Assembly: GCA_020635395.1 (NCBI GenBank) | Contig: JACJZV010000002.1 | Coordinates: 29,914 to 93,913 of the forward strand | Direction: 5' to 3' | Origin: Flavobacteriales bacterium | GTDB taxonomy: Bacteria; Bacteroidota; Bacteroidia; NS11-12g; UBA9320 | Length of the DNA: 64,000 nt | Part shown: in pieces, positions 4,546-39,564 of the stretch | How the letters are laid out: the number at the start of each line of letters is the position of its first letter | Position numbering within the stretch: the first letter of the stretch is position 1 | Notes under the pieces: generated by a model | What the model saw: the letters and a program-made list of their open reading frames with translations, nothing else | Told to the model about the DNA's origin: nothing | The model's database searches: none | Position numbers and translations under genes: made by a program

Positions 4546-5100
4546 ATTTTACCAATGCACCAATCCAGTTGGCCAGAGGTTATTTTTTCTTAATGTGTAG
4601 TCCGTATTTTTGAAAAACAATCGTTGCACAAAATGATATTCAGCCCAAGAAAAAAAGAAATAAGCATCAGCCTGCCAAGTCCTTGCCACGAAAAATGGGA
4701 GGACATGACAAAAACGGAGCATGGTAGATATTGTGGACAATGCACCAAAGAAGTGATTGATTTTACCCGATTTACCGATGATGAAATGGTGAGTTTCTTT
4801 TTCCGAAATAGGGAAAATGTGTGCGGGCAATTTAGAGCAACACAGCTTAATAGACCTATTATTAAAGAAACGACCTACAGAATGCCTTACCTCAACAAAA
4901 CACTTGCTTTTTTAGGAATTTTAGGAGCCGGAATAAAAGCCCAGGGACAGGATTCTAACACAAAATTTGAATCGAAACAGGAAGTGGTTCAGCCTTCGGC
5001 AGTTGATAAAAACATAGAACCCGACAGCCTTCCTAAAACCGAGAAAACTATAACAATAAGAGGTACGGTGGTGGATTCTACAACCCATGAGCCATTGGAT
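4546..5100 (+). repeat. about 555 bp direct repeat, copy 1 (promoter plus 5' half of the Cys/His-motif gene), about 98% identical to 6402..6956
   Basis: Nucleotide identity is visible by eye. The encoded N-terminal 150 aa differ at only a few positions. Confidence 0.85.
4605..4612 (+). promoter_or_regulatory. Bacteroidetes sigma-A -7 box TATTTTTG (TAnnTTTG) upstream of paralog 1
   Basis: Exact TAnnTTTG match 21 nt upstream of the ATG at 4633. An identical copy lies at 6461..6468. Confidence 0.4.
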
Positions 5101-5373
5101 TACGCGATTATCTCCGTTAAAGAAACTTCTTATGAACTTTTTACGGATGAATATGGTAATTTTATTTTCAAAATTCCGGACTCATTAGCCAATTCGCACA
5201 TTACTATTTTTGTCCAATACTTCAATTATACACAATCATTTATAATAAGGCCAGAAGATTTTGCAAAGCCAATTCTTGCAATTACAAATTTTATAAATAC
5301 CGAAAGCCAATTAAATGGAGCCCCAATTGTTGCCAAACGCAAATGGTGGAAATTCTGGAAACCGAAATACTAA
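4633..5373 (+). CDS. membrane protein with N-terminal Cys/His motif (CHEKW...CGQC, putative zinc-binding), one TM segment and a CarboxypepD_reg-like C-terminal domain; paralog 1
   Basis: ATG at 4633 (the ORF track used TTG at 4624). Motif PCHEKWEDMTKTEHGRYCGQCTKEVIDFT. Hydrophobic LAFLGILGAGI. ITIRGTVVDSTTHEPL beta-sandwich-like segment. Conserved tail KRKWWKFWK. Confidence 0.5.
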   Translation: MIFSPRKKEISISLPSPCHEKWEDMTKTEHGRYCGQCTKEVIDFTRFTDDEMVSFFFRNRENVCGQFRATQLNRPIIKETTYRMPYLNKTLAFLGILGAGIKAQGQDSNTKFESKQEVVQPSAVDKNIEPDSLPKTEKTITIRGTVVDSTTHEPLDYAIISVKETSYELFTDEYGNFIFKIPDSLANSHITIFVQYFNYTQSFIIRPEDFAKPILAITNFINTESQLNGAPIVAKRKWWKFWKPKY

Positions 5374-5378
5374 AAACT

Positions 5379-5876
5379 TCACTGTAATTCATTCTCTTGT
5401 TTTAGAATATGGTTTATCAACTTTTCACTGAGCCAAATGTTTTTCTCTTTCAGTTCATGAAACAATGGCTTCAACTCCTTTATTATTCCTTGTCGTTTCG
5501 CCTTTACCAATACGCCAAGAGTACCTGTAACGGTTAGACTTGCGTGTTTGGCATGAAATCTACCCAATACTTCGTCTATTATTACCAAATCAGCGTTTAA
5601 CTCAGTTGCCAAAATTATTGCTTCTGCTTCGCCCAAATCTAAATCTAAAAAATACTTAACAGCATCTTTGTTCTCAATTTCAACAATATTAATCCATTCA
5701 ATTTTTGATAAGTCTTGATAATATGCTTTGTGTTTTCCAGCTTCAATTTCTTGATATACAGCATTTGGAATAAATATCTCTGAATACAATGATTTTAAAA
5801 TATCAAGTTTCGAAAGTTTGAGCAGGGATAAAATGGGAGTTGTGTTTGAAACGATTTTAGGCATTGGCAATATCAC
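5379..5876 (-). CDS. DUF3368 family PIN-domain protein (putative toxin)
   Basis: N-terminus KIVSNTTPILSLLKLSKLDILKSLYSEIFIPNAVYQEIE matches the DUF3368/PIN consensus. 165 aa. Overlaps the upstream partner by 20 nt. Confidence 0.65.
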   Translation of the reverse strand: MILPMPKIVSNTTPILSLLKLSKLDILKSLYSEIFIPNAVYQEIEAGKHKAYYQDLSKIEWINIVEIENKDAVKYFLDLDLGEAEAIILATELNADLVIIDEVLGRFHAKHASLTVTGTLGVLVKAKRQGIIKELKPLFHELKEKNIWLSEKLINHILKQENELQ

Positions 5877-6114
5877 TATTTATATCTTCAAAGGTCGATT
5901 GCCCAAATGCAGAAACTTTGTATTTGACCAAAAGTTCTATAAAATCTACCCGTGATAGACCCAAAACTTTAGCAGCCATACCCGAAGATATTTTGCCTAA
6001 TTCAAACAATTTTACCAATGCACTTGTCTTCATCTCATTGGTAAAATCTTTTGTGTTTAATTTGAGTGAATTGGCTAAAAATTCGGGATACTCTATGTTT
6101 ATTATACCGTTCAT
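5857..6114 (-). CDS. UPF0175 family antitoxin-like HTH protein
   Basis: 85 aa. ...TSALVKLFELGKISSGMAAKVLGLSRVDFIELL matches UPF0175. It is the usual partner of DUF3368. Confidence 0.65.
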   Translation of the reverse strand: MNGIINIEYPEFLANSLKLNTKDFTNEMKTSALVKLFELGKISSGMAAKVLGLSRVDFIELLVKYKVSAFGQSTFEDINSDIANA

Positions 6115-7982: not shown

Positions 7983-8767
7983 ATGAAGAGCTGATTTTAA
8001 AATGTATTGAAACCGAAAAGTTGCAATATGAAAAAAAAAGGGCTCGAAATATTTTTTTTAACCTCTCTTACTATAGCATTGTTAACCTCGTAATAGCCAT
8101 TTATTGTTGCACCCCACCCTTACGATATTCTTTTTTCATTGGTGTAATTGTTCTGGTTAATTACGTGCTCTTTATGAAAAATTATGTCAAGAACAGAAGA
8201 TTTGTCATCTATCCTTACTCAATAAACAATGCCCAATTAGAGAGGGTAATTATTTGTTTTTCAGAATTAGTTGGAAGCCAATTGACCGTAAAATACCAAG
8301 AAAATTACCATTCCACCATTTTTTCGGATGGAATAATTTTATACAAATGCGTGGCAATCAATCATCAAAATCAAACCATGATTAATATAAACTATGCCAT
8401 TGAATATGAGTTCGGCCTTTCTTTCGGAAAGTTAAAAAAATACCACTCCACGTTAAACGACCTTCTAATTGCCGTATGGAAAGGAGAAAATATTGAAGAA
8501 AAGACTAACGAAATTCTTGCAACAAGAGCAAATAATTTTTGGGCGAAATCCGAATTTTCTGGATTCCGTCTTTTACAAAAGTTGGTTTTTTATCCGCTCC
8601 TTTGCATCTTTATTATCGGGCCAATTGTAATGGCCGTAGTATATCAAAAACTTATTTTCCTGCTCATTTCATTGTTTTTCATCTTTATGTTTTGGCCGTA
8701 TATAAAAACAGAAATTTACGTAATAAGAAAGAAATGGAAAATGAATCGCGAAAAAAGATTGAAGTAA
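7979..8767 (+). CDS. hypothetical multi-pass membrane protein
   Basis: Several hydrophobic helices. No recognisable motif. Confidence 0.3.
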   Translation: MNEELILKCIETEKLQYEKKRARNIFFNLSYYSIVNLVIAIYCCTPPLRYSFFIGVIVLVNYVLFMKNYVKNRRFVIYPYSINNAQLERVIICFSELVGSQLTVKYQENYHSTIFSDGIILYKCVAINHQNQTMININYAIEYEFGLSFGKLKKYHSTLNDLLIAVWKGENIEEKTNEILATRANNFWAKSEFSGFRLLQKLVFYPLLCIFIIGPIVMAVVYQKLIFLLISLFFIFMFWPYIKTEIYVIRKKWKMNREKRLK

Positions 8768-8813
8768 AAATTTCCAAATCCAATTACATTTGAGGCAAAT
8801 ATTATTTTATAGA

Positions 8814-9254
8814 ATGAAAAAACTAATAATACTCCTAACTGCTTTATTTGTAGGGTTTGTGGCCAATGCCCAAAAAGTAAAAATCAAAAACGAAATTGCC
8901 ACGGTTGACGGCGTGGAATACGTAAAAGTAAAAAAAGACCCTGTAACAGCCTCTGTAAAAAACGTAGCAACATTGAGCGATTCTACCCTAATCTACCTCA
9001 AAACCCAAAGCTATAAAGACCCCAACAGAGTTGATGCAAAAGGAGTTCCTATGTCGGTATATTATTTAGAAGTTATCAATGCCAACACAGGAGAAATTTA
9101 TTTTGAAAGTGGTGTAGGAATTAAAAATACCATCAAAGCTTTTTACCTCGAAAATGTCATTACCGCCAATGGTATTAATGAGGCGAACATGCAAAAGTTG
9201 GCCATTAAATACGGCTTTGATTATTCGCGTAGGAGAGACGAACTAAGCAGATAA
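8814..9254 (+). CDS. hypothetical secreted protein
   Basis: Signal peptide MKKLIILLTALFVGFVANAQ at an internal Met. The ORF track starts at 8790. Confidence 0.4.
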   Translation: MKKLIILLTALFVGFVANAQKVKIKNEIATVDGVEYVKVKKDPVTASVKNVATLSDSTLIYLKTQSYKDPNRVDAKGVPMSVYYLEVINANTGEIYFESGVGIKNTIKAFYLENVITANGINEANMQKLAIKYGFDYSRRRDELSR

Positions 9255-27762: not shown

Positions 27763-28575
27763 ATGTCAAAATCGGAATACAAAAAAGTTACTACCCTCGC
27801 TTTGCTCGACATGAAAATGCAAGGCGAAAAAATAAGTATGCTGACAGCCTACGACTACTCATTTGCCAAAATTATTGATGATGCAGGCATTGACGTTATT
27901 TTGGTAGGCGACTCAGCCAGCAACGTGATGGCTGGCCATATATCTACCTTGCCCATCACTTTGGATCAAATGATATACCATGCTCAATCGGTTATTCGGG
28001 CGGTGGACCGAGCGTTGGTAGTTGTCGATTTGCCGTTTGGTTCTTATCAAGGCGATAGCAAAGAGGCTCTAAAAAGTGCCATTAGAATAATGAAAGAGGC
28101 AGGTGCCCATGCCATAAAATTAGAGGGTGGAGTGGAAGTTATCGAATCTGTAAAACGGATTTTGTCTGCCGGAATTCCCGTAATGGGTCATTTGGGATTA
28201 ACCCCTCAAAGCATCTTTAAATTTGGCACATACTCCGTGCGAGCCAAAGAAGAAGCAGAGGCAAAAAAATTAATGGAAGATGCCCTATTGCTGGAAGATG
28301 CGGGTTGTTTTGGGATTGTGTTAGAAAAAATTCCGGCCAAGTTGGCAACAGAGGTTACCAAAAATATCAACATTCCAATAATTGGTATTGGTGCAGGTGG
28401 CGGAGTTGATGGACAGGTGTTGGTTTTGCATGACTTATTGGGAATAACGCACGAATTTCATCCTCGCTTTTTGAGAAGATATTTAGAACTGTATGACACG
28501 GTAAAAGATGCCGTTGGCCACTACATTTCGGATGTTAAAAGCAAAGATTTCCCGAACGAAGAAGAGCAGTATTGA
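27763..28575 (+). CDS. panB: 3-methyl-2-oxobutanoate hydroxymethyltransferase
   Basis: [37 protein letters not shown] is a canonical PanB N-terminus. Confidence 0.9.
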
Positions 28576-28710
28576 CGCTTACCCATTGCGGCTGAGAAAA
28601 ATCTCTTTCCATTTCAAACCGCTATTTTTTTCAGATTTGAATATCTGACGATTAAATGTCGGACTCCTATTAAGAATGATATTCTCAACGGTTTTGGACT
28701 TTGCGTTCGG

Positions 28711-28736
28711 GTCATCCCGATAGCTATTGGGATCGG
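28711..28736. repeat. imperfect palindromic element GTCATCCCGATAGCTATTGGGATCGG (copy 1)
   Basis: Core ATCCCGATAG/CTATTGGGAT is self-complementary with one G-T (wobble) position. Confidence 0.7.
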
Positions 28737-28781
28737 AACACAAAGTTACAATATATTATTAAAGTTTAATAGAAGCACAAA

Positions 28782-28811
28782 ACGTCATCCCGATAGCTAT
28801 CGGGATGACGT
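28782..28811. repeat. perfect 30-bp palindrome ACGTCATCCCGATAGCTATCGGGATGACGT (copy 2), possible bidirectional terminator hairpin
   Basis: Perfect inverted repeat (13-bp stem around AGCT). Lies between convergent panB (+) and 28846..29295 (-). Followed by a T-rich stretch. Confidence 0.7.
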
Positions 28812-28845
28812 AATTTATTGCTTTTATGTTTTGTATTCTCATGTT

Positions 28846-29295
28846 CTACCCCATGTTAATTGCCGCGTAGAAATTATTTGCCTTGGAGAGCTTATATATA
28901 CCAATAAGCAACATCGAAATAAAAAGAAGATGCCAAAAAATAAAATATACAACACCCCAAAATTTCGAATGAATTGATTTATAAGTAACAACCTTTCTTA
29001 AATTTTGATAGTTTTTCTTTGGGGGTTTGCCATAACCCAATGATATGAATAAAGGAAGCAAAAGAAATAAAACACCCTTCACAATTGGTGCTAAAGAGAC
29101 ATCATGATGGTCGTAATAATTTTTTAAGTCTTGTGGTCTTAAAGCAAGCATAATAAAGAACATAAAGACTATTACACCACACATGGATTTATAATTGGAA
29201 AGTACCTCCAACCTCTTCTGTGACCTTTTTTTGTTTAAAAAAGCCCTTAACAAGCTGTAGTGAAGAATAGGTATTAATTTTATATTCTTAAACAT
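28846..29295 (-). CDS. hypothetical 3-4 TM membrane protein (cassette gene 3)
   Basis: Hydrophobic helices. No motif. AT-rich. Confidence 0.35.
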   Translation of the reverse strand: MFKNIKLIPILHYSLLRAFLNKKRSQKRLEVLSNYKSMCGVIVFMFFIMLALRPQDLKNYYDHHDVSLAPIVKGVLFLLLPLFISLGYGKPPKKNYQNLRKVVTYKSIHSKFWGVVYFIFWHLLFISMLLIGIYKLSKANNFYAAINMG

Positions 29296-29301
29296 ATTTA
29301 T

Positions 29302-29547
29302 CTATCTTATAGGATATTGTAGTAGGTTGACCCGAGGCACATACTCTGTGTTATCTCTTTGCCTAGTCATAATTCGATCAATTACCTCCTGATCTTCAGC
29401 ACTAGGTGACTTATACTCAATATCATTTGTTGCCATATAAATATCTCCCGCTATCTCTGCGATTGTCACAACCGTAAGTACTGTCAAACCAACCGGATTA
29501 CTCACAACTACCAAATAGGTACCAACAACATATCCCGCGGTTTTCAT
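29302..29547 (-). CDS. small (81 aa) single-TM protein (cassette gene 2), start at the internal ATG
   Basis: MKTAGYVVGTYLVVVSNPVGLTVLTVVTIAEIAG. The ORF-track N-terminal extension to 29658 is GC-rich and coincides with a hairpin, so the shorter form is preferred. Confidence 0.3.
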   Translation of the reverse strand: MKTAGYVVGTYLVVVSNPVGLTVLTVVTIAEIAGDIYMATNDIEYKSPSAEDQEVIDRIMTRQRDNTEYVPRVNLLQYPIR

Positions 29548-29580
29548 TACCTCCCATGTTCCCTTTTCCACTTTCCTTGG

Positions 29581-29630
29581 CTGGTGTGAGCTTCCTGCAC
29601 ATGTCCGCCCACGGAGGAAGCTCGCACCAG
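29581..29630. other. GC-rich 16-bp-stem hairpin in the intergenic region of the AT-rich cassette
   Basis: CTGGTG-T-GAGCTTCCT [18-nt loop] AGGAAGCTC-G-CACCAG, including one G-U wobble. No flanking U-run on either strand. Confidence 0.55.
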
Positions 29631-29686
29631 AGTGGGATTTAACCAATGAAGCCGCCATTTTGCCAAACTGCTGTTGGGTGCAGTTT

Positions 29687-31138
29687 TTAATTCAAGGCTT
29701 CTTTGCATTGTTCTATTTCAATTATTTTCAAATGGTCAGAGTATTTTGTTAATGTTGCTCTGTCTGCAAGTCCAAGTTCATTAGTTATTAATTCTTCTAA
29801 ACGATACAAAACGCTTTTTCCATACCTATATTTCATTGGGTCGCTGTCGTAAAGTTTATTGATTTCATTAGCCCTTTCTTGTGGGTCATTAATCTTTCCA
29901 TACTTTCCGTATTCAGAATATGCTATTCTTAGTTTTGATTTTGAAATTTCACTTGTTTCTATTGTAGCTTGCTCAATTAATTCTTTTGCTTTGTCAATTG
30001 AAATTTGGTTATACAAACAGTTAATATGTCTCTCGTTTAAAAAATAGCTTTCAATGTCATAGTGCTTCGTAATCAGAACAGTTGTAATTCCGTCAATCTG
30101 ATAGTTTCTAAGTTGTTTTTCAATTATTTGCTTTAATTGCTGTGGATTGTCATTGTCTCTGTCACGATGTATTAAGATATGCTTCAAATTAGCTGACTTT
30201 GATGTAAGCTTTTTAGCAAAGAAGATAGCAGAAGCTAGGTTGTCTTTACCATCGTATGATTCAACTTTTGCTTTTGAAATATCAATGCCGTGAATTTCAA
30301 GAAGATTCTCAATCATTTTTGTATTCCCATCTTCTGTTAACACTAAAAATGTTTTATTGAAATCTAGGTCTTCTAATTCCTTTGCTATTGATAAATATTG
30401 ATTTAATTTTTCAATTATCAGAGACCCAAAAAAATCGATTAGGGGCTCTATGTTACTGCTATCAGCCAAAACAAGACTTTCATAGTATTGCTTTCTTTTC
30501 TCGTTAGGGATTGAAATGGGGAAAAGTCCGTGTTTTAATAGGATTAGATTGAGAATAAGTCTTGATATCCTACCATTTCCATCTAAAAATGGGTGTATAG
30601 AAACAACTTTATAATGAAAAAGTATGGCGGTTACAACTGGTGAAATTTCTGAATCAATTAATGTTGAGTAATACCAATCAAATGTTTCTTCTAATTGCCC
30701 AAGAATGTTTTTGAAATCATAAACAATTTTCTTACCGTCTGGATGAACTATAAAGACATCGACTTTTCTAAATTCACCATCATTCATTAGAATTTCTTGA
30801 AGAAGAATTAAATCTAATAATGAAAAGTGTTCATCTACCAAATCAAACAGGAAACTTATCGAGGCATAGCTTTTTCCTAGACTTAAATATTTGTTTTTCT
30901 TTTCAGTGTAGTCAGTTGATAGTTTTGGGTCTCTCTGCGTTAAATATGCGAGTTCTAATCCTAGTTGTTCACGAATTTCGGGGTTCAACGAATTTAAGTG
31001 AGAGTCACTTCCAAGAATAAAAGACTCTTGAGCTATTTTCAAAAGTGTTGACTTTTCTTGTCCAAGTGCATTGACTTTGTTTCTTAGATTTTCAATATCT
31101 TGAACAATACTTTTTTTACTTAGTTCTTTTTCAGTCAT
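29687..31138 (-). CDS. Fic-domain protein fused to a C-terminal TOPRIM/DUF4435-like domain (cassette gene 1)
   Basis: Canonical Fic motif HPFLDGNGRISR (nt about 30569..30595). C-terminal 230 aa has hhhhTEDG (LVLTEDGNT) then ILIHRDRDND, resembling TOPRIM/DUF4435/RloB-like acidic motifs. Region is AT-rich. Confidence 0.55.
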   Translation of the reverse strand: MTEKELSKKSIVQDIENLRNKVNALGQEKSTLLKIAQESFILGSDSHLNSLNPEIREQLGLELAYLTQRDPKLSTDYTEKKNKYLSLGKSYASISFLFDLVDEHFSLLDLILLQEILMNDGEFRKVDVFIVHPDGKKIVYDFKNILGQLEETFDWYYSTLIDSEISPVVTAILFHYKVVSIHPFLDGNGRISRLILNLILLKHGLFPISIPNEKRKQYYESLVLADSSNIEPLIDFFGSLIIEKLNQYLSIAKELEDLDFNKTFLVLTEDGNTKMIENLLEIHGIDISKAKVESYDGKDNLASAIFFAKKLTSKSANLKHILIHRDRDNDNPQQLKQIIEKQLRNYQIDGITTVLITKHYDIESYFLNERHINCLYNQISIDKAKELIEQATIETSEISKSKLRIAYSEYGKYGKINDPQERANEINKLYDSDPMKYRYGKSVLYRLEELITNELGLADRATLTKYSDHLKIIEIEQCKEALN

Positions 31139-31273
31139 TGTCGTCTTTTAAAATTGCAGCCAACGTTAGTATATGCGAACCTCTATTACGCATATTTTCC
31201 ATATCATAGAAACAAAGTACTTGTCGTTATCGATTCATTTTCCATTTCGTTTACCAAAAATAGGGTAAATTTT

Positions 31274-37863: not shown

Positions 37864-38052
37864 AGCAAAAAGAAGTAGGCATAATCCTATAGGCCAATTT
37901 TCCCGTTTCCTTTTTCTAAAAAAAGCAGGAATTGGTTTTAGGGGGGCTTTGTTTAGAAGATTACTATGCGGGTCTTTTGAATGTTTTCAATTTTACCATT
38001 TTCAAATTCTACTCTTTTTCGATTAAATCGAATAAATTTGACAAATAAATTT

Positions 38053-39564
38053 ATGAAAAAAATAGTTCTATATCTTACCTTTTTAATTCCTCTTCATATA
38101 GTCTTTGCATACGCAGTAGCTCAAACTAACAACATTTATATTCCCTATCGGGTGGGCGACAAATGGGGAGTGAGCGATACAAATGGGGTGTTGATTGTAG
38201 AGCCTCAATATGACGAAGTTAGTATGAATCCTTCCAATAGGGCTACCGATTTTGATTTGATGGATTTCAATCGTTTTAATGACAGATTATCGAACCGACA
38301 GGATTTGTATTTTATGAATGACTTAGTTTATTGCAGGGTGGGAAAGATGTGGGGGGCCTTATACCAAAATATGGAAATTATAGCACCTACTTTTAAATCG
38401 ATAACTCTTATAAAACCATTCTTTTTTTGTGCCACAGATACCAATGGTTTTGAACTTTTTAACTTGAATGGCAAAAAAGTATTTGATGAAAAGATAAATT
38501 GGTACTATTTTCCAGAACTTGTTCAAGGTTACTCTATATCCAAAAAGGTATATGTTATGAGAACTCTGACAGGTAATTATCATGTTTTTCAATATGATGC
38601 CTCGGAAGGTAGGATTGTTACGATGATAGGTGTATGGAATGAAAATCCAACATTTGAACAGGTAAATATTAACAGTTGGTATGTAAGCAACCGTAAAAAC
38701 GAAAAGGGAGTTTTGTTAACATGGAGTGCCAATAGTTTTGAAGCGAAAGATACTGTTTTTAATCCAATAAAATATTCAATCTCAAAGGGTGATATTCATT
38801 CAGCTAAATCGGCCCTTGAAGCGTGGAGAAAGCAAAAGCAAAATCATAGAATTGTTCACCACTATTCAGTTATGAAATCTGAAAAAGATGTACATGGTAG
38901 AATTGAAAAGTGGAATGAAATGTTGGATGCCTACGATACCGTAAGGTTGGAGAATTATGTCGAAATTGGATTTCAAAACACTGGAAATGATTTAGATACA
39001 GTCGATTCTTATAGTGATTATTTTTTAACTTTCGACAAAAAAGGTAGATGTGGAATTGAAACCCATCACTCCGTAATACCTCCTCAATTTTCAACTATTA
39101 AAGGCTATCGTTTTCAAAACAATTATCTTTTTTTGGTTTCGAAAAAAACAAATTCGGAGCAACTAAAATATGGAATACTGGATGAGTTTGGGAAGATAAT
39201 AGTACCTTTTAAGTACTATGAAATTTTAGAATTGGAGGGATATAGTGGTAATTTTTTTTGGTTCAAAAATGAGAAAAAAGGAACAATCAGAATTTTCAAA
39301 CCTGCTCCAAAACCTACTTTCGAGATTTATTTTGATGAGCAATACGACTCAATTGACTCAACGTTTTGGGGACATTACTTATACATTGGTAATCAAAAAC
39401 GACTTTTCTTGTCATATGGTCATGATTTATCTCCTTTGTTTCCGAGTAAATATGAAATTGAACCAGCACACTATCAAAATTTTCCATTGTGGTTCTTGAC
39501 AGACGAAAACTTTAACCCTATCGGCTACGCCAATTCCAGAGGCATCCTCTATTTCAAAGACTAA
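38053..39564 (+). CDS. WG-repeat-containing secreted protein
   Basis: Signal peptide MKKIVLYLTFLIPLHIVFAYA. Repeated KWG/YG...P.YDEI units (GDKWGVSDTNGVLIVEPQYDEV, LKYGILDEFGKIIVPFKYYEI). Confidence 0.5.
   Translation: MKKIVLYLTFLIPLHIVFAYAVAQTNNIYIPYRVGDKWGVSDTNGVLIVEPQYDEVSMNPSNRATDFDLMDFNRFNDRLSNRQDLYFMNDLVYCRVGKMWGALYQNMEIIAPTFKSITLIKPFFFCATDTNGFELFNLNGKKVFDEKINWYYFPELVQGYSISKKVYVMRTLTGNYHVFQYDASEGRIVTMIGVWNENPTFEQVNINSWYVSNRKNEKGVLLTWSANSFEAKDTVFNPIKYSISKGDIHSAKSALEAWRKQKQNHRIVHHYSVMKSEKDVHGRIEKWNEMLDAYDTVRLENYVEIGFQNTGNDLDTVDSYSDYFLTFDKKGRCGIETHHSVIPPQFSTIKGYRFQNNYLFLVSKKTNSEQLKYGILDEFGKIIVPFKYYEILELEGYSGNFFWFKNEKKGTIRIFKPAPKPTFEIYFDEQYDSIDSTFWGHYLYIGNQKRLFLSYGHDLSPLFPSKYEIEPAHYQNFPLWFLTDENFNPIGYANSRGILYFKD

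Follow-up and report, generated by a model that had tools for sequence, protein, structure and literature searches.

Organization of the locus

The DNA considered here is a stretch of 64,000 nucleotides (the window) from contig JACJZV010000002.1 of a Flavobacteriales bacterium, and the element in question is a minus-strand gene whose 483-amino-acid (aa) product joins an N-terminal Fic domain to a C-terminal domain that is TOPRIM-like in its predicted fold and motif placement. The database entry for the identical protein (P0001) reads 'Fic family protein [Flavobacteriales bacterium]', and the gene calls are unchanged on independent metagenome contigs bearing the identical locus. A histidine kinase gene lies upstream of the fusion gene, and two small open reading frames (ORFs) lie downstream of it on the same strand, converging with panB (Table 1). 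A first-pass annotation, made from the sequence, had combined the fusion gene and the small ORFs into a three-gene toxin or defence cassette. As argued below, the object of interest is instead the single fusion gene, together with an unannotated family of TOPRIM-like domains.

That annotation also remarked on the lack of an ATPase, and here it was right. Profile searches found no ATPase domain in the 483-aa protein, and none is encoded nearby, as judged from the ORF list of the window and from the contigs with the identical locus; the adjoining genes are the histidine kinase and panB.

Table 1. Coordinates of the fusion gene, its domains and the surrounding features in the window
Feature	Position	Strand	Basis or remark
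483-aa Fic-TOPRIM-like fusion gene	29687-31138, including stop	minus	ORF list
Fic fold, aa 99-263	30350-30844	minus	PADLOC SoFic match span; Pfam and PDB FICD matches
Pfam Fic core, aa 106-200	30539-30823	minus	PF02661
Fic catalytic motif HPFLDGNGRISR, aa 182-193	30560-30595	minus	translation
C-terminal TOPRIM-like domain and helical bundle (predicted), aa 255-483	29690-30376	minus	
Unit common to other genomes: gene, 30-57 nt leader, 17-43 nt trailer	29644-31195	minus	blastn limits
Histidine kinase, 1205 aa	31274-34891	minus	neighbour of fusion gene
GC-rich hairpin	29581-29630 (arms 29581-29596 and 29615-29630)	minus	inverted repeat, 16-nt arms, 15/16 paired (94%)
81-aa ORF	29302-29547	minus	internal ATG within a 118-aa frame
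149-aa ORF	28846-29295	minus	ORF list
Palindrome 1	28782-28811	both	perfect, 30 nt, 13-bp stem, T-rich tails on both strands
Palindrome 2	28711-28735	both	degenerate copy of palindrome 1
panB	27763-28575	plus	convergent to small-ORF unit

The Fic domain

Three kinds of match agree that this is a genuine Fic fusion protein. Pfam PF02661 passes its gathering score of 24 with 56.8 bits (E=4e-15), the best PADLOC match of the protein is SoFic (1.8e-21), and the best PDB sequence matches are FICD chains (E~6e-19). The canonical active-site motif noticed in the first reading, HxFx(D/E)GNGRxxR, is intact in the window protein, and both this motif and the superfamily profile place the domain in the Fic/Fido superfamily. 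Among 33 Fic fusions of 24-89% identity, the set on which conservation was measured, H-P-F-x-D-x-N-G-R-x-x-R is kept in all 33; the first G of the full motif shows two minor substitutions.

The protein shares its Fic core and catalytic motif with SoFic- and FICD-type AMPylases and, by analogy with SoFic, which is a toxic Fic defence system consisting of a single protein, it may likewise be a single-gene system with a potential for intrinsic toxicity (PMC12249575). The likeness is confined to the Fic fold, however, since the SoFic match spans aa ~99-263 only. The NCBIfam SoFic equivalog NF046030 reaches 36 bits against a cut-off of 550, over aa 154-210 only, and SoFic lacks any counterpart of the 230-aa TOPRIM-like domain. 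The family also differs from SoFic- and FICD-type proteins in its apparent means of restraint. A regular-expression search of the 33-sequence alignment for the autoinhibitory motif (S/T)xxxE(G/N) of classes I-III found no conserved column, although a degenerate element could escape such a motif search. One candidate inhibitory motif, TKMIEN (aa 273-278), was rejected, as it is present in 5/33 sequences and sits inside the C-terminal domain. Unlike SoFic, the family has no conserved small downstream antitoxin comparable to AS1: no conserved AS1-type mini-ORF overlapping the 3' end was found in the loci compared. A 53-aa frame considered as a hidden 3' antitoxin was likewise discarded; it ends after 13 codons at the L003 locus (Table 2), with nothing comparable in L006, L010 or L004.

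N-terminal to the Fic fold, the segment SHLNSLNP contains H47, L48, S50 and L51, which are invariant or nearly so and are among the most conserved N-terminal residues. It lies within aa 43-65 (30944-31012), the sole low-confidence loop of the AlphaFold2 model (pLDDT, the predicted score of the local distance difference test, 30-49). That this loop, which is not a canonical (S/T)xxxE(G/N) element, might serve as an auto-AMPylation or autoinhibitory segment is pure speculation.

The C-terminal domain

The first-pass annotation had compared the C-terminal half to TOPRIM/DUF4435/RloB-like domains on account of its acidic motifs. These motifs, LVLTEDG (E269/D270) and HRDRD (aa 324-328), are indeed present, and structure prediction gave, with high confidence, a core of alternating strands and helices followed by a helical bundle; the DUF4435/RloB label, on the other hand, was overstated. 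The AlphaFold2 model of aa 250-483, built on a 27-sequence alignment (pLDDT 92, predicted template modelling score 0.86), has a b-a-b-a-b-a-b core with predicted strands at aa 264-268, 290-294, 320-325 and 352-356. The residues that are invariant or at least 90% conserved fall largely at the ends of these strands, with E269-D270 after strand 1, H324-x-D326-x-D328 after strand 3 and D361-x-E363 after strand 4, together with T357, H371 and K441, the last of these a lysine contributed by the helical bundle. E269 and D326-x-D328 are invariant both in the 33 Fic fusions and in a second set of 38 domain sequences with differing N-terminal partners (Fic-, ATPase- and ROCO-fused).

TOPRIM domains were defined by a Glu that ends strand 1 and a DxD after strand 3, within a four-stranded Rossmann-like b-a core (Aravind et al. 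1998), and the C-terminal domain has this placement in its predicted strands. The layout of Glu and DxD with extra acidic residues and a lysine further resembles that of the two-metal OLD/AriB nucleases (PMC10568477, PMC12409363). Defence-specific models point in the same direction. The PADLOC AriB model is matched by 8/38 family members (best 1.4e-6), with the window protein not among them, the HEC-01B models by several members including the window protein (1e-4), and the AbiLii model by 1/38. The top structural match in BFVD is an RloB-like protein (E=6.5e-3), and RloB itself (PF13707) gave no Pfam match in the window protein or in family members. We regard the C-terminal half as a divergent TOPRIM-like domain that is nearest to the AriB/OLD group and is not a member of DUF4435, DUF3226, RloB or OLD. 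The relationship is remote, and the evidence of similarity, which is consistent though weak, is drawn from the predicted fold, the motif placement and the defence-specific hidden Markov models.

AriB, the DUF4435-type effector of PARIS, cleaves tRNA as a two-metal RNase of the TOPRIM type (PMC12409363). Apart from the family members' matches to the AriB model, the window domain resembles it in combining a TOPRIM core with a helical region and in placing the presumptive catalytic Glu directly after strand 1, as with AriB E26 (PMC12409363). In contrast, sequence identity is ~13%, the window protein matches HEC-01B and not the AriB model, and Pfam DUF4435 does not detect it. Moreover, AriB is bound by a separate ATPase, AriA, whereas the window domain is fused in cis to Fic with no ATPase gene nearby.

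The comparison with the OLD family (P2 Old, TsOLD, GajA, HEC-04) is similarly mixed. As in these proteins, the TOPRIM-like module is C-terminal, and the fusion is a single gene, as are the class 1 OLDs (PMC10568477). The window protein nevertheless falls outside the family as usually delimited: it has no N-terminal ABC ATPase, the defining partner being replaced by Fic, and its TOPRIM-like region has no detectable similarity to that of classical OLD proteins. In HEC-04, an ATPase-TOPRIM fusion that provides defence, both active sites are needed (10.1101/2024.01.29.577857).

A domain family with exchangeable partners

About 57 full-length homologs of the fusion were found, with 24-97% identity, all from Bacteroidota sources and all labelled simply 'Fic family protein'. 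The C-terminal domain is much more widely distributed. An exhaustive phmmer search with aa 250-483 against 1.84 billion representatives recovered 240 clusters (at 50% identity) with E<=1e-3, in which the domain is almost always C-terminal; short stand-alone forms exist too. Among ten sampled proteins, seven carry an N-terminal ABC ATPase (AAA_15/AAA_21/DUF2813) in an OLD-like layout, two an LRR-Roc-COR module and one LRR, and in none of the ten does any Pfam model cover the domain at E<=1e-3. When the window protein was compared by BLASTP with three of the ATPase-fused proteins, identity was 27-36% over aa ~250-460, with the motifs shared. The domain is thus normally partnered with an ABC ATPase, as are the effector domains of AriB, HEC-01B and AbiLii, and the suggestion in the first-pass annotation that such domains usually pair with ATPases is borne out by the seven fusions.

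Two other searches delimit what can be said of the family's range. A profile search of a 5.8-billion-protein database with the domain alignment returned close relatives only, its word index being limiting, and among the matches listed in scans of metagenome and viral collections with the full-length alignment, generic Fic proteins were so dominant that these scans are uninformative on the fusion.

In comparative genomics, a module that is exchanged between NTPase sensor or regulator chassis is, by established reasoning, the effector. Because the C-terminal domain is swapped between NTPase chassis in just this way, it would by analogy be the nuclease effector of the ABC-ATPase and LRR-Roc-COR fusions. 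In the window protein, Fic takes the position that these partners hold elsewhere.

The domain's position bears directly on a rival interpretation, namely that the C-terminal domain is not a nuclease at all but a Rossmann-like ligand-binding or oligomerisation regulator of Fic. This would make the protein an AMPylase under regulation, perhaps one with a housekeeping or signalling function. There is a precedent in SoFic, whose own C-terminal domain regulates its toxicity (PMC12249575), and the failure of Foldseek and of profile searches to reach known TOPRIM proteins (see below) is what such a regulator would give. A signalling role might also be read from the neighbouring histidine kinase. At two independent loci, the window locus (L001 6248-9865) and L006/L007 (L006 6321-7715), a kinase gene lies directly upstream of the fusion gene, and at a third (L184, 12533-13597) one lies within 3 kb. 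The kinases at these 3/11 loci share 21-28% identity, however, across generic domains; we have discarded a functional link, and the adjacency is probably due to chance in the kinase-rich Bacteroidota. Invariant residues (E-D, H-x-D-x-D, D-x-E, H and K) lie at strand ends in TOPRIM order, as is typical of a metal-dependent catalytic site. When joined to ABC ATPases or ROCO proteins, the domain is placed as an effector would be, and the weak matches to AriB, HEC-01B, AbiLii, DUF4435, DUF3226 and RloB-like proteins all point to one clan. We therefore consider a purely regulatory domain improbable.

Acquisition and mobility of the fusion gene

The fusion gene is compositionally foreign to its surroundings. 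Its 31.1% GC is the lowest for any 1452-nt stretch of the 64 kb (mean 39.4%, standard deviation 3.0%), and the 2293-nt stretch covering all three ORFs is likewise the lowest-GC window of its length. The AT-rich character seen in the first reading therefore holds, even though GC content is uneven within the stretch (149-aa ORF 31.1%, 81-aa ORF 40.2%, the 139-nt spacer between the fusion gene and the 81-aa ORF 53.2%). Elsewhere in the window, low-GC 1-kb bins (0.326-0.338) at 5001-6000, 8001-9000 and 38001-39000 may mark other acquired segments.

Comparison with related genomes leads to the same view. In eight Bacteroidia metagenome-assembled genomes (MAGs) with an orthologous kinase (50-74% identity), the gene order upstream of the kinase matches that of the window at 34.9-37.8 kb, and synteny is lost downstream of the kinase 3' end (~31295) in 8/8. 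Neither the fusion gene nor the small ORFs nor panB were found downstream of the orthologous kinase in any of the eight, which are too distant to fix the exact insertion boundaries. It is nevertheless clear that the fusion gene does not belong to the conserved content of this locus.

What, then, is the unit that moves? In window coordinates, nucleotide homology to other loci extends over 29670-31170 for L003, up to 31167 for L021 and over 29644-31195 for L006, and it stops before the hairpin spacer and the small ORFs. The shared leader holds a conserved segment of ~35 nt, and a short stem-loop directly follows the fusion-gene stop codon. Homologs at 95%, 92%, 89% and 78% identity sit in four different loci. 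Because the gene is a GC minimum, is absent from the locus in eight MAGs and occurs as near-identical copies scattered across unrelated loci, the data show horizontal mobility of a single gene, which apparently travels alone among defence islands of marine Bacteroidota. No terminal repeats were found flanking the fusion gene, nor any recombinase or repeats that explain the movement.

One of these copies, at 92% identity, is cut to 367 aa with the last third of the TOPRIM-like domain gone (L021 6001-7104; L022 4547-5650). It was seen beside ribonucleotide reductase in two separate assemblies, and may reflect decay of the copy or an effect of the contig end.

Genomic context

Besides the window, 10 further independent loci were examined, with homologs of ~25-95% identity and contexts that are all different (Table 2). 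Recognised defence or mobile-element genes adjoin the homolog in 5/11 independent contexts, as a plain count. The association with defence that the first-pass annotation had guessed at is thus seen in several loci, where homologs lie among Thoeris, pAgo, GmrSD and MmeI genes. In an all-versus-all comparison of the ORFs within 5 kb at the 11 loci, no recurrent partner gene was found; generic histidine-kinase domains resembled each other in three loci, and a single XRE-HTH pair was the one other similarity.

Table 2. Homologs of the fusion gene at other loci and the genes beside them
Locus	Identity	Neighbouring genes
P0003 contig	95%	followed by DUF6932 and a 305-aa gene
L021	92%, truncated copy	adjoins ribonucleotide reductase
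L003	89%	RloB + AAA_15/21, HTH
L010	78%	NucS, pAgo (Piwi), DpnII, RelA_SpoT, recombinase, Apyc1
L006	67%	TIR, SIR2-STALD, ThsB_TIR (Thoeris genes) directly downstream
L004	67%	HTH
L187	67%	small ORFs without known function
L186	54%	small ORFs without known function
L008	47%	MmeI, helicase, T5orf172, GmrSD, ArdA, HipA, IS21
L184	46%	reverse transcriptase, GIY-YIG, AAA_25
L185	28%	SUKH/SMI1 and small ORFs without known function

Two of these loci have arrangements of their own. In Flavobacterium sp. GSN2 (L003, 5129-7339), the fusion gene is ~600 nt from a convergent RloB + AAA_15/AAA_21 pair, which puts a classical two-gene ATPase/TOPRIM-like system beside an ATPase-less Fic-TOPRIM-like gene. 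In an uncultured Aquimarina (L185, 4542-12561), the homolog is part of a co-directional array of ~10 small ORFs without known function beside a SUKH/SMI1-type protein, resembling the immunity-gene array of a polymorphic toxin.

Fic toxins such as FicT and Doc are classical toxins of toxin-antitoxin pairs, and a lone gene that moves so readily could be selfish rather than protective. The fusion might then be an addiction-type toxin, or cargo for inter-bacterial competition within a polymorphic-toxin/immunity island, with no anti-phage function. The extreme mobility of the gene and the SUKH/SMI1 neighbour in the L185 array, with similar arrays in L186 and L187, would fit such a role. The lack of any conserved antitoxin or immunity gene argues against it, as does the N-terminus, in which Pfam found no secretion or trafficking domain (there was one non-significant coiled-coil match). 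Since several of the contexts are also canonical defence islands (Thoeris, pAgo, GmrSD, MmeI), we judge this explanation unlikely.

The small ORFs and the hairpin

The possibility that the two small ORFs form a toxin-immunity or abortive-infection cassette with the fusion gene, their products acting as immunity factors, membrane effectors or anchors, deserves attention for several reasons. All three ORFs are co-directional, a gap of 6 nt separates the two small ones, a terminator-like palindrome marks their end, and the GC content of the 149-aa ORF equals that of the fusion gene. The small ORFs do appear to encode membrane proteins, as first described; the Kyte-Doolittle method predicts a single transmembrane segment for the 81-aa product and three for the 149-aa product. 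There is also a precedent in EcSofic, whose toxicity is counteracted by a 47-aa protein encoded downstream of it (PMC12249575).

Against this stands the comparative evidence. Neither small ORF was found at any of the 10 other fusion loci, including those with the 95% and 89% homologs, by tblastn or in the all-versus-all comparison of neighbours, and the 149-aa ORF, whose sole match in a 5.8-billion-cluster database is itself, is by this sequence criterion an ORFan. Nucleotide homology with other loci ends ahead of the spacer. The spacing described as tight at the outset is so for the two small ORFs and not for the fusion gene, whose stop codon is separated from the ATG of the 81-aa ORF by a GC-rich spacer with a strong hairpin; the stem-loop that follows the stop codon also speaks against a joint unit. 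A three-gene cassette is accordingly very unlikely. Judged from these sequence comparisons, the two membrane ORFs are, like the hairpin and palindromes, local features of the window locus, unrelated to the fusion gene.

The hairpin and the palindromes are both real, and it is only their standing as boundaries of a mobile unit that falls away. Folding 29540-29690 as RNA gives z=-2.7, and the hairpin spacer has no copy elsewhere in the window or in the other loci. An identification as a known RNA was rejected for want of an Rfam match. The spacer (29548-29686), with its hairpin directly upstream of the 81-aa ORF, could serve the small-ORF unit as a leader or a regulatory RNA, or could instead be left over from foreign DNA. 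The CCGATAGCTATCGGGATGA-type palindrome occurs in two copies and, within the window, is confined to them (pattern matches: 4 observed, 0 expected); palindrome 1 looks like a bidirectional terminator serving the convergent transcripts of panB and the small ORFs. A dispersed family of the repetitive extragenic palindromic type, or the ends of a mobile element, were considered and set aside, given two copies in 64 kb, no flanking terminal repeats and a terminator-like form. The palindromes (28693-28826) also gave a sub-threshold Rfam match to Wolbachia small RNA 46 (WsnRNA46; 31 versus 65 bits, E=0.0012), which is almost certainly a palindrome artefact.

A model for the fusion protein

The domain identities, the residue conservation, the mobility, the lack of a partner gene and the island contexts described above lead us to a reading that we hold with slightly better than even confidence: the gene encodes a stand-alone, horizontally mobile, two-enzyme conflict protein, in which Fic occupies the usual place of an ATPase. 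We infer its catalysis, trigger, target and antiphage role, and suggest that the protein probably acts in abortive infection.

In this model, uninfected cells would contain the protein in an inactive state, imposed by intramolecular or oligomeric autoinhibition, a form of control proposed because no conserved antitoxin gene accompanies the fusion gene. On a phage-derived cue, the TOPRIM-like domain would cut nucleic acid as a two-metal nuclease. AriB and P2 Old act on tRNA (PMC12409363, PMC12445682) and TsOLD and GajA on DNA (PMC10568477), and by analogy the substrate would be one or the other. The Fic domain may AMPylate a host or phage protein, and it would either regulate the TOPRIM-like domain or add a second toxic activity, as in SoFic (PMC12249575). 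It would thereby take the regulatory or co-effector place that the ATPase holds in OLD, PARIS and HEC-01/04, and the outcome would be growth arrest, that is, abortive infection.

A more specific version, which we put forward only tentatively and think rather less than probable, treats the protein as an immune effector of a kind not described before: an AriB/OLD-like TOPRIM nuclease gated by AMPylation within one polypeptide, Fic having taken over control from the ABC ATPase, or else a union of two toxic activities. Gating might come about through auto-AMPylation (for example, of the invariant S50 in the SHLNSLNP loop) or because a phage or host protein is modified. In the other case, the protein-AMPylating and the nucleic-acid-cleaving activities, orthogonal to each other, might fire together. 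The C-terminal domain would then be a new TOPRIM subfamily of ~240 clusters, a swappable effector of ABC ATPases, ROCO NTPases and Fic.

A number of results weigh against the two-enzyme conflict protein. The TOPRIM assignment on which it depends is itself remote. Foldseek searches against PDB and BFVD gave no match at E<=1e-3, and the family profile, searched against PDB sequences, did not find AriB, OLD or GajA. Alignment by hhalign was non-significant for P2 Old (probability 0.1%) and for the L003 RloB protein, which was aligned with the family profile (0.4%); none of these profile and sequence comparisons tied the domain to P2 Old, RloB or solved TOPRIM nucleases. Pfam DUF4435 (PF14491) matched 1/38 members, at 3.9e-4 and below threshold, with no match in the window protein, and DUF3226 (PF11536) matched 1/38, its 17.8-18.8 bits (E=0.0015-0.003) falling short of the gathering score of 27; at the level of Pfam, therefore, the likeness to TOPRIM/DUF4435 proposed in the first reading comes close to disappearing. 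In addition, 4/11 contexts (the window, L021, L186 and L187) have no recognisable defence gene, L004 has no neighbour but an HTH gene, and L185 has a SUKH/SMI1 immunity-type protein. A search for close relatives of the domain found none on IMG/VR viral contigs. HEC-01, the nearest PADLOC family, reportedly gave no defence in its authors' assays. Finally, the proposed mechanism does not explain how a constitutively competent Fic domain and a nuclease would be tolerated without an antitoxin.

Implications

The two halves of this protein are known already, though separately, from Fic defence (SoFic) and from the ATPase-coupled TOPRIM nucleases (OLD, Gabija, PARIS, HEC-04). Their covalent pairing without an ATPase is apparently undescribed, hidden in the databases behind the name of the Fic family. 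In agreement with the initial impression that the gene combination is not a described system, no account of a Fic-TOPRIM architecture was found in the searchable literature. The C-terminal domain constitutes a modest but distinct family that deserves its own model for the annotation of defence systems. If the fusion protein is active, it would mean that an AriB/OLD-type nuclease module can be driven by a wholly different regulatory enzyme, and it would offer a compact, single-gene model for how a nuclease and an AMPylase are silenced without an antitoxin.

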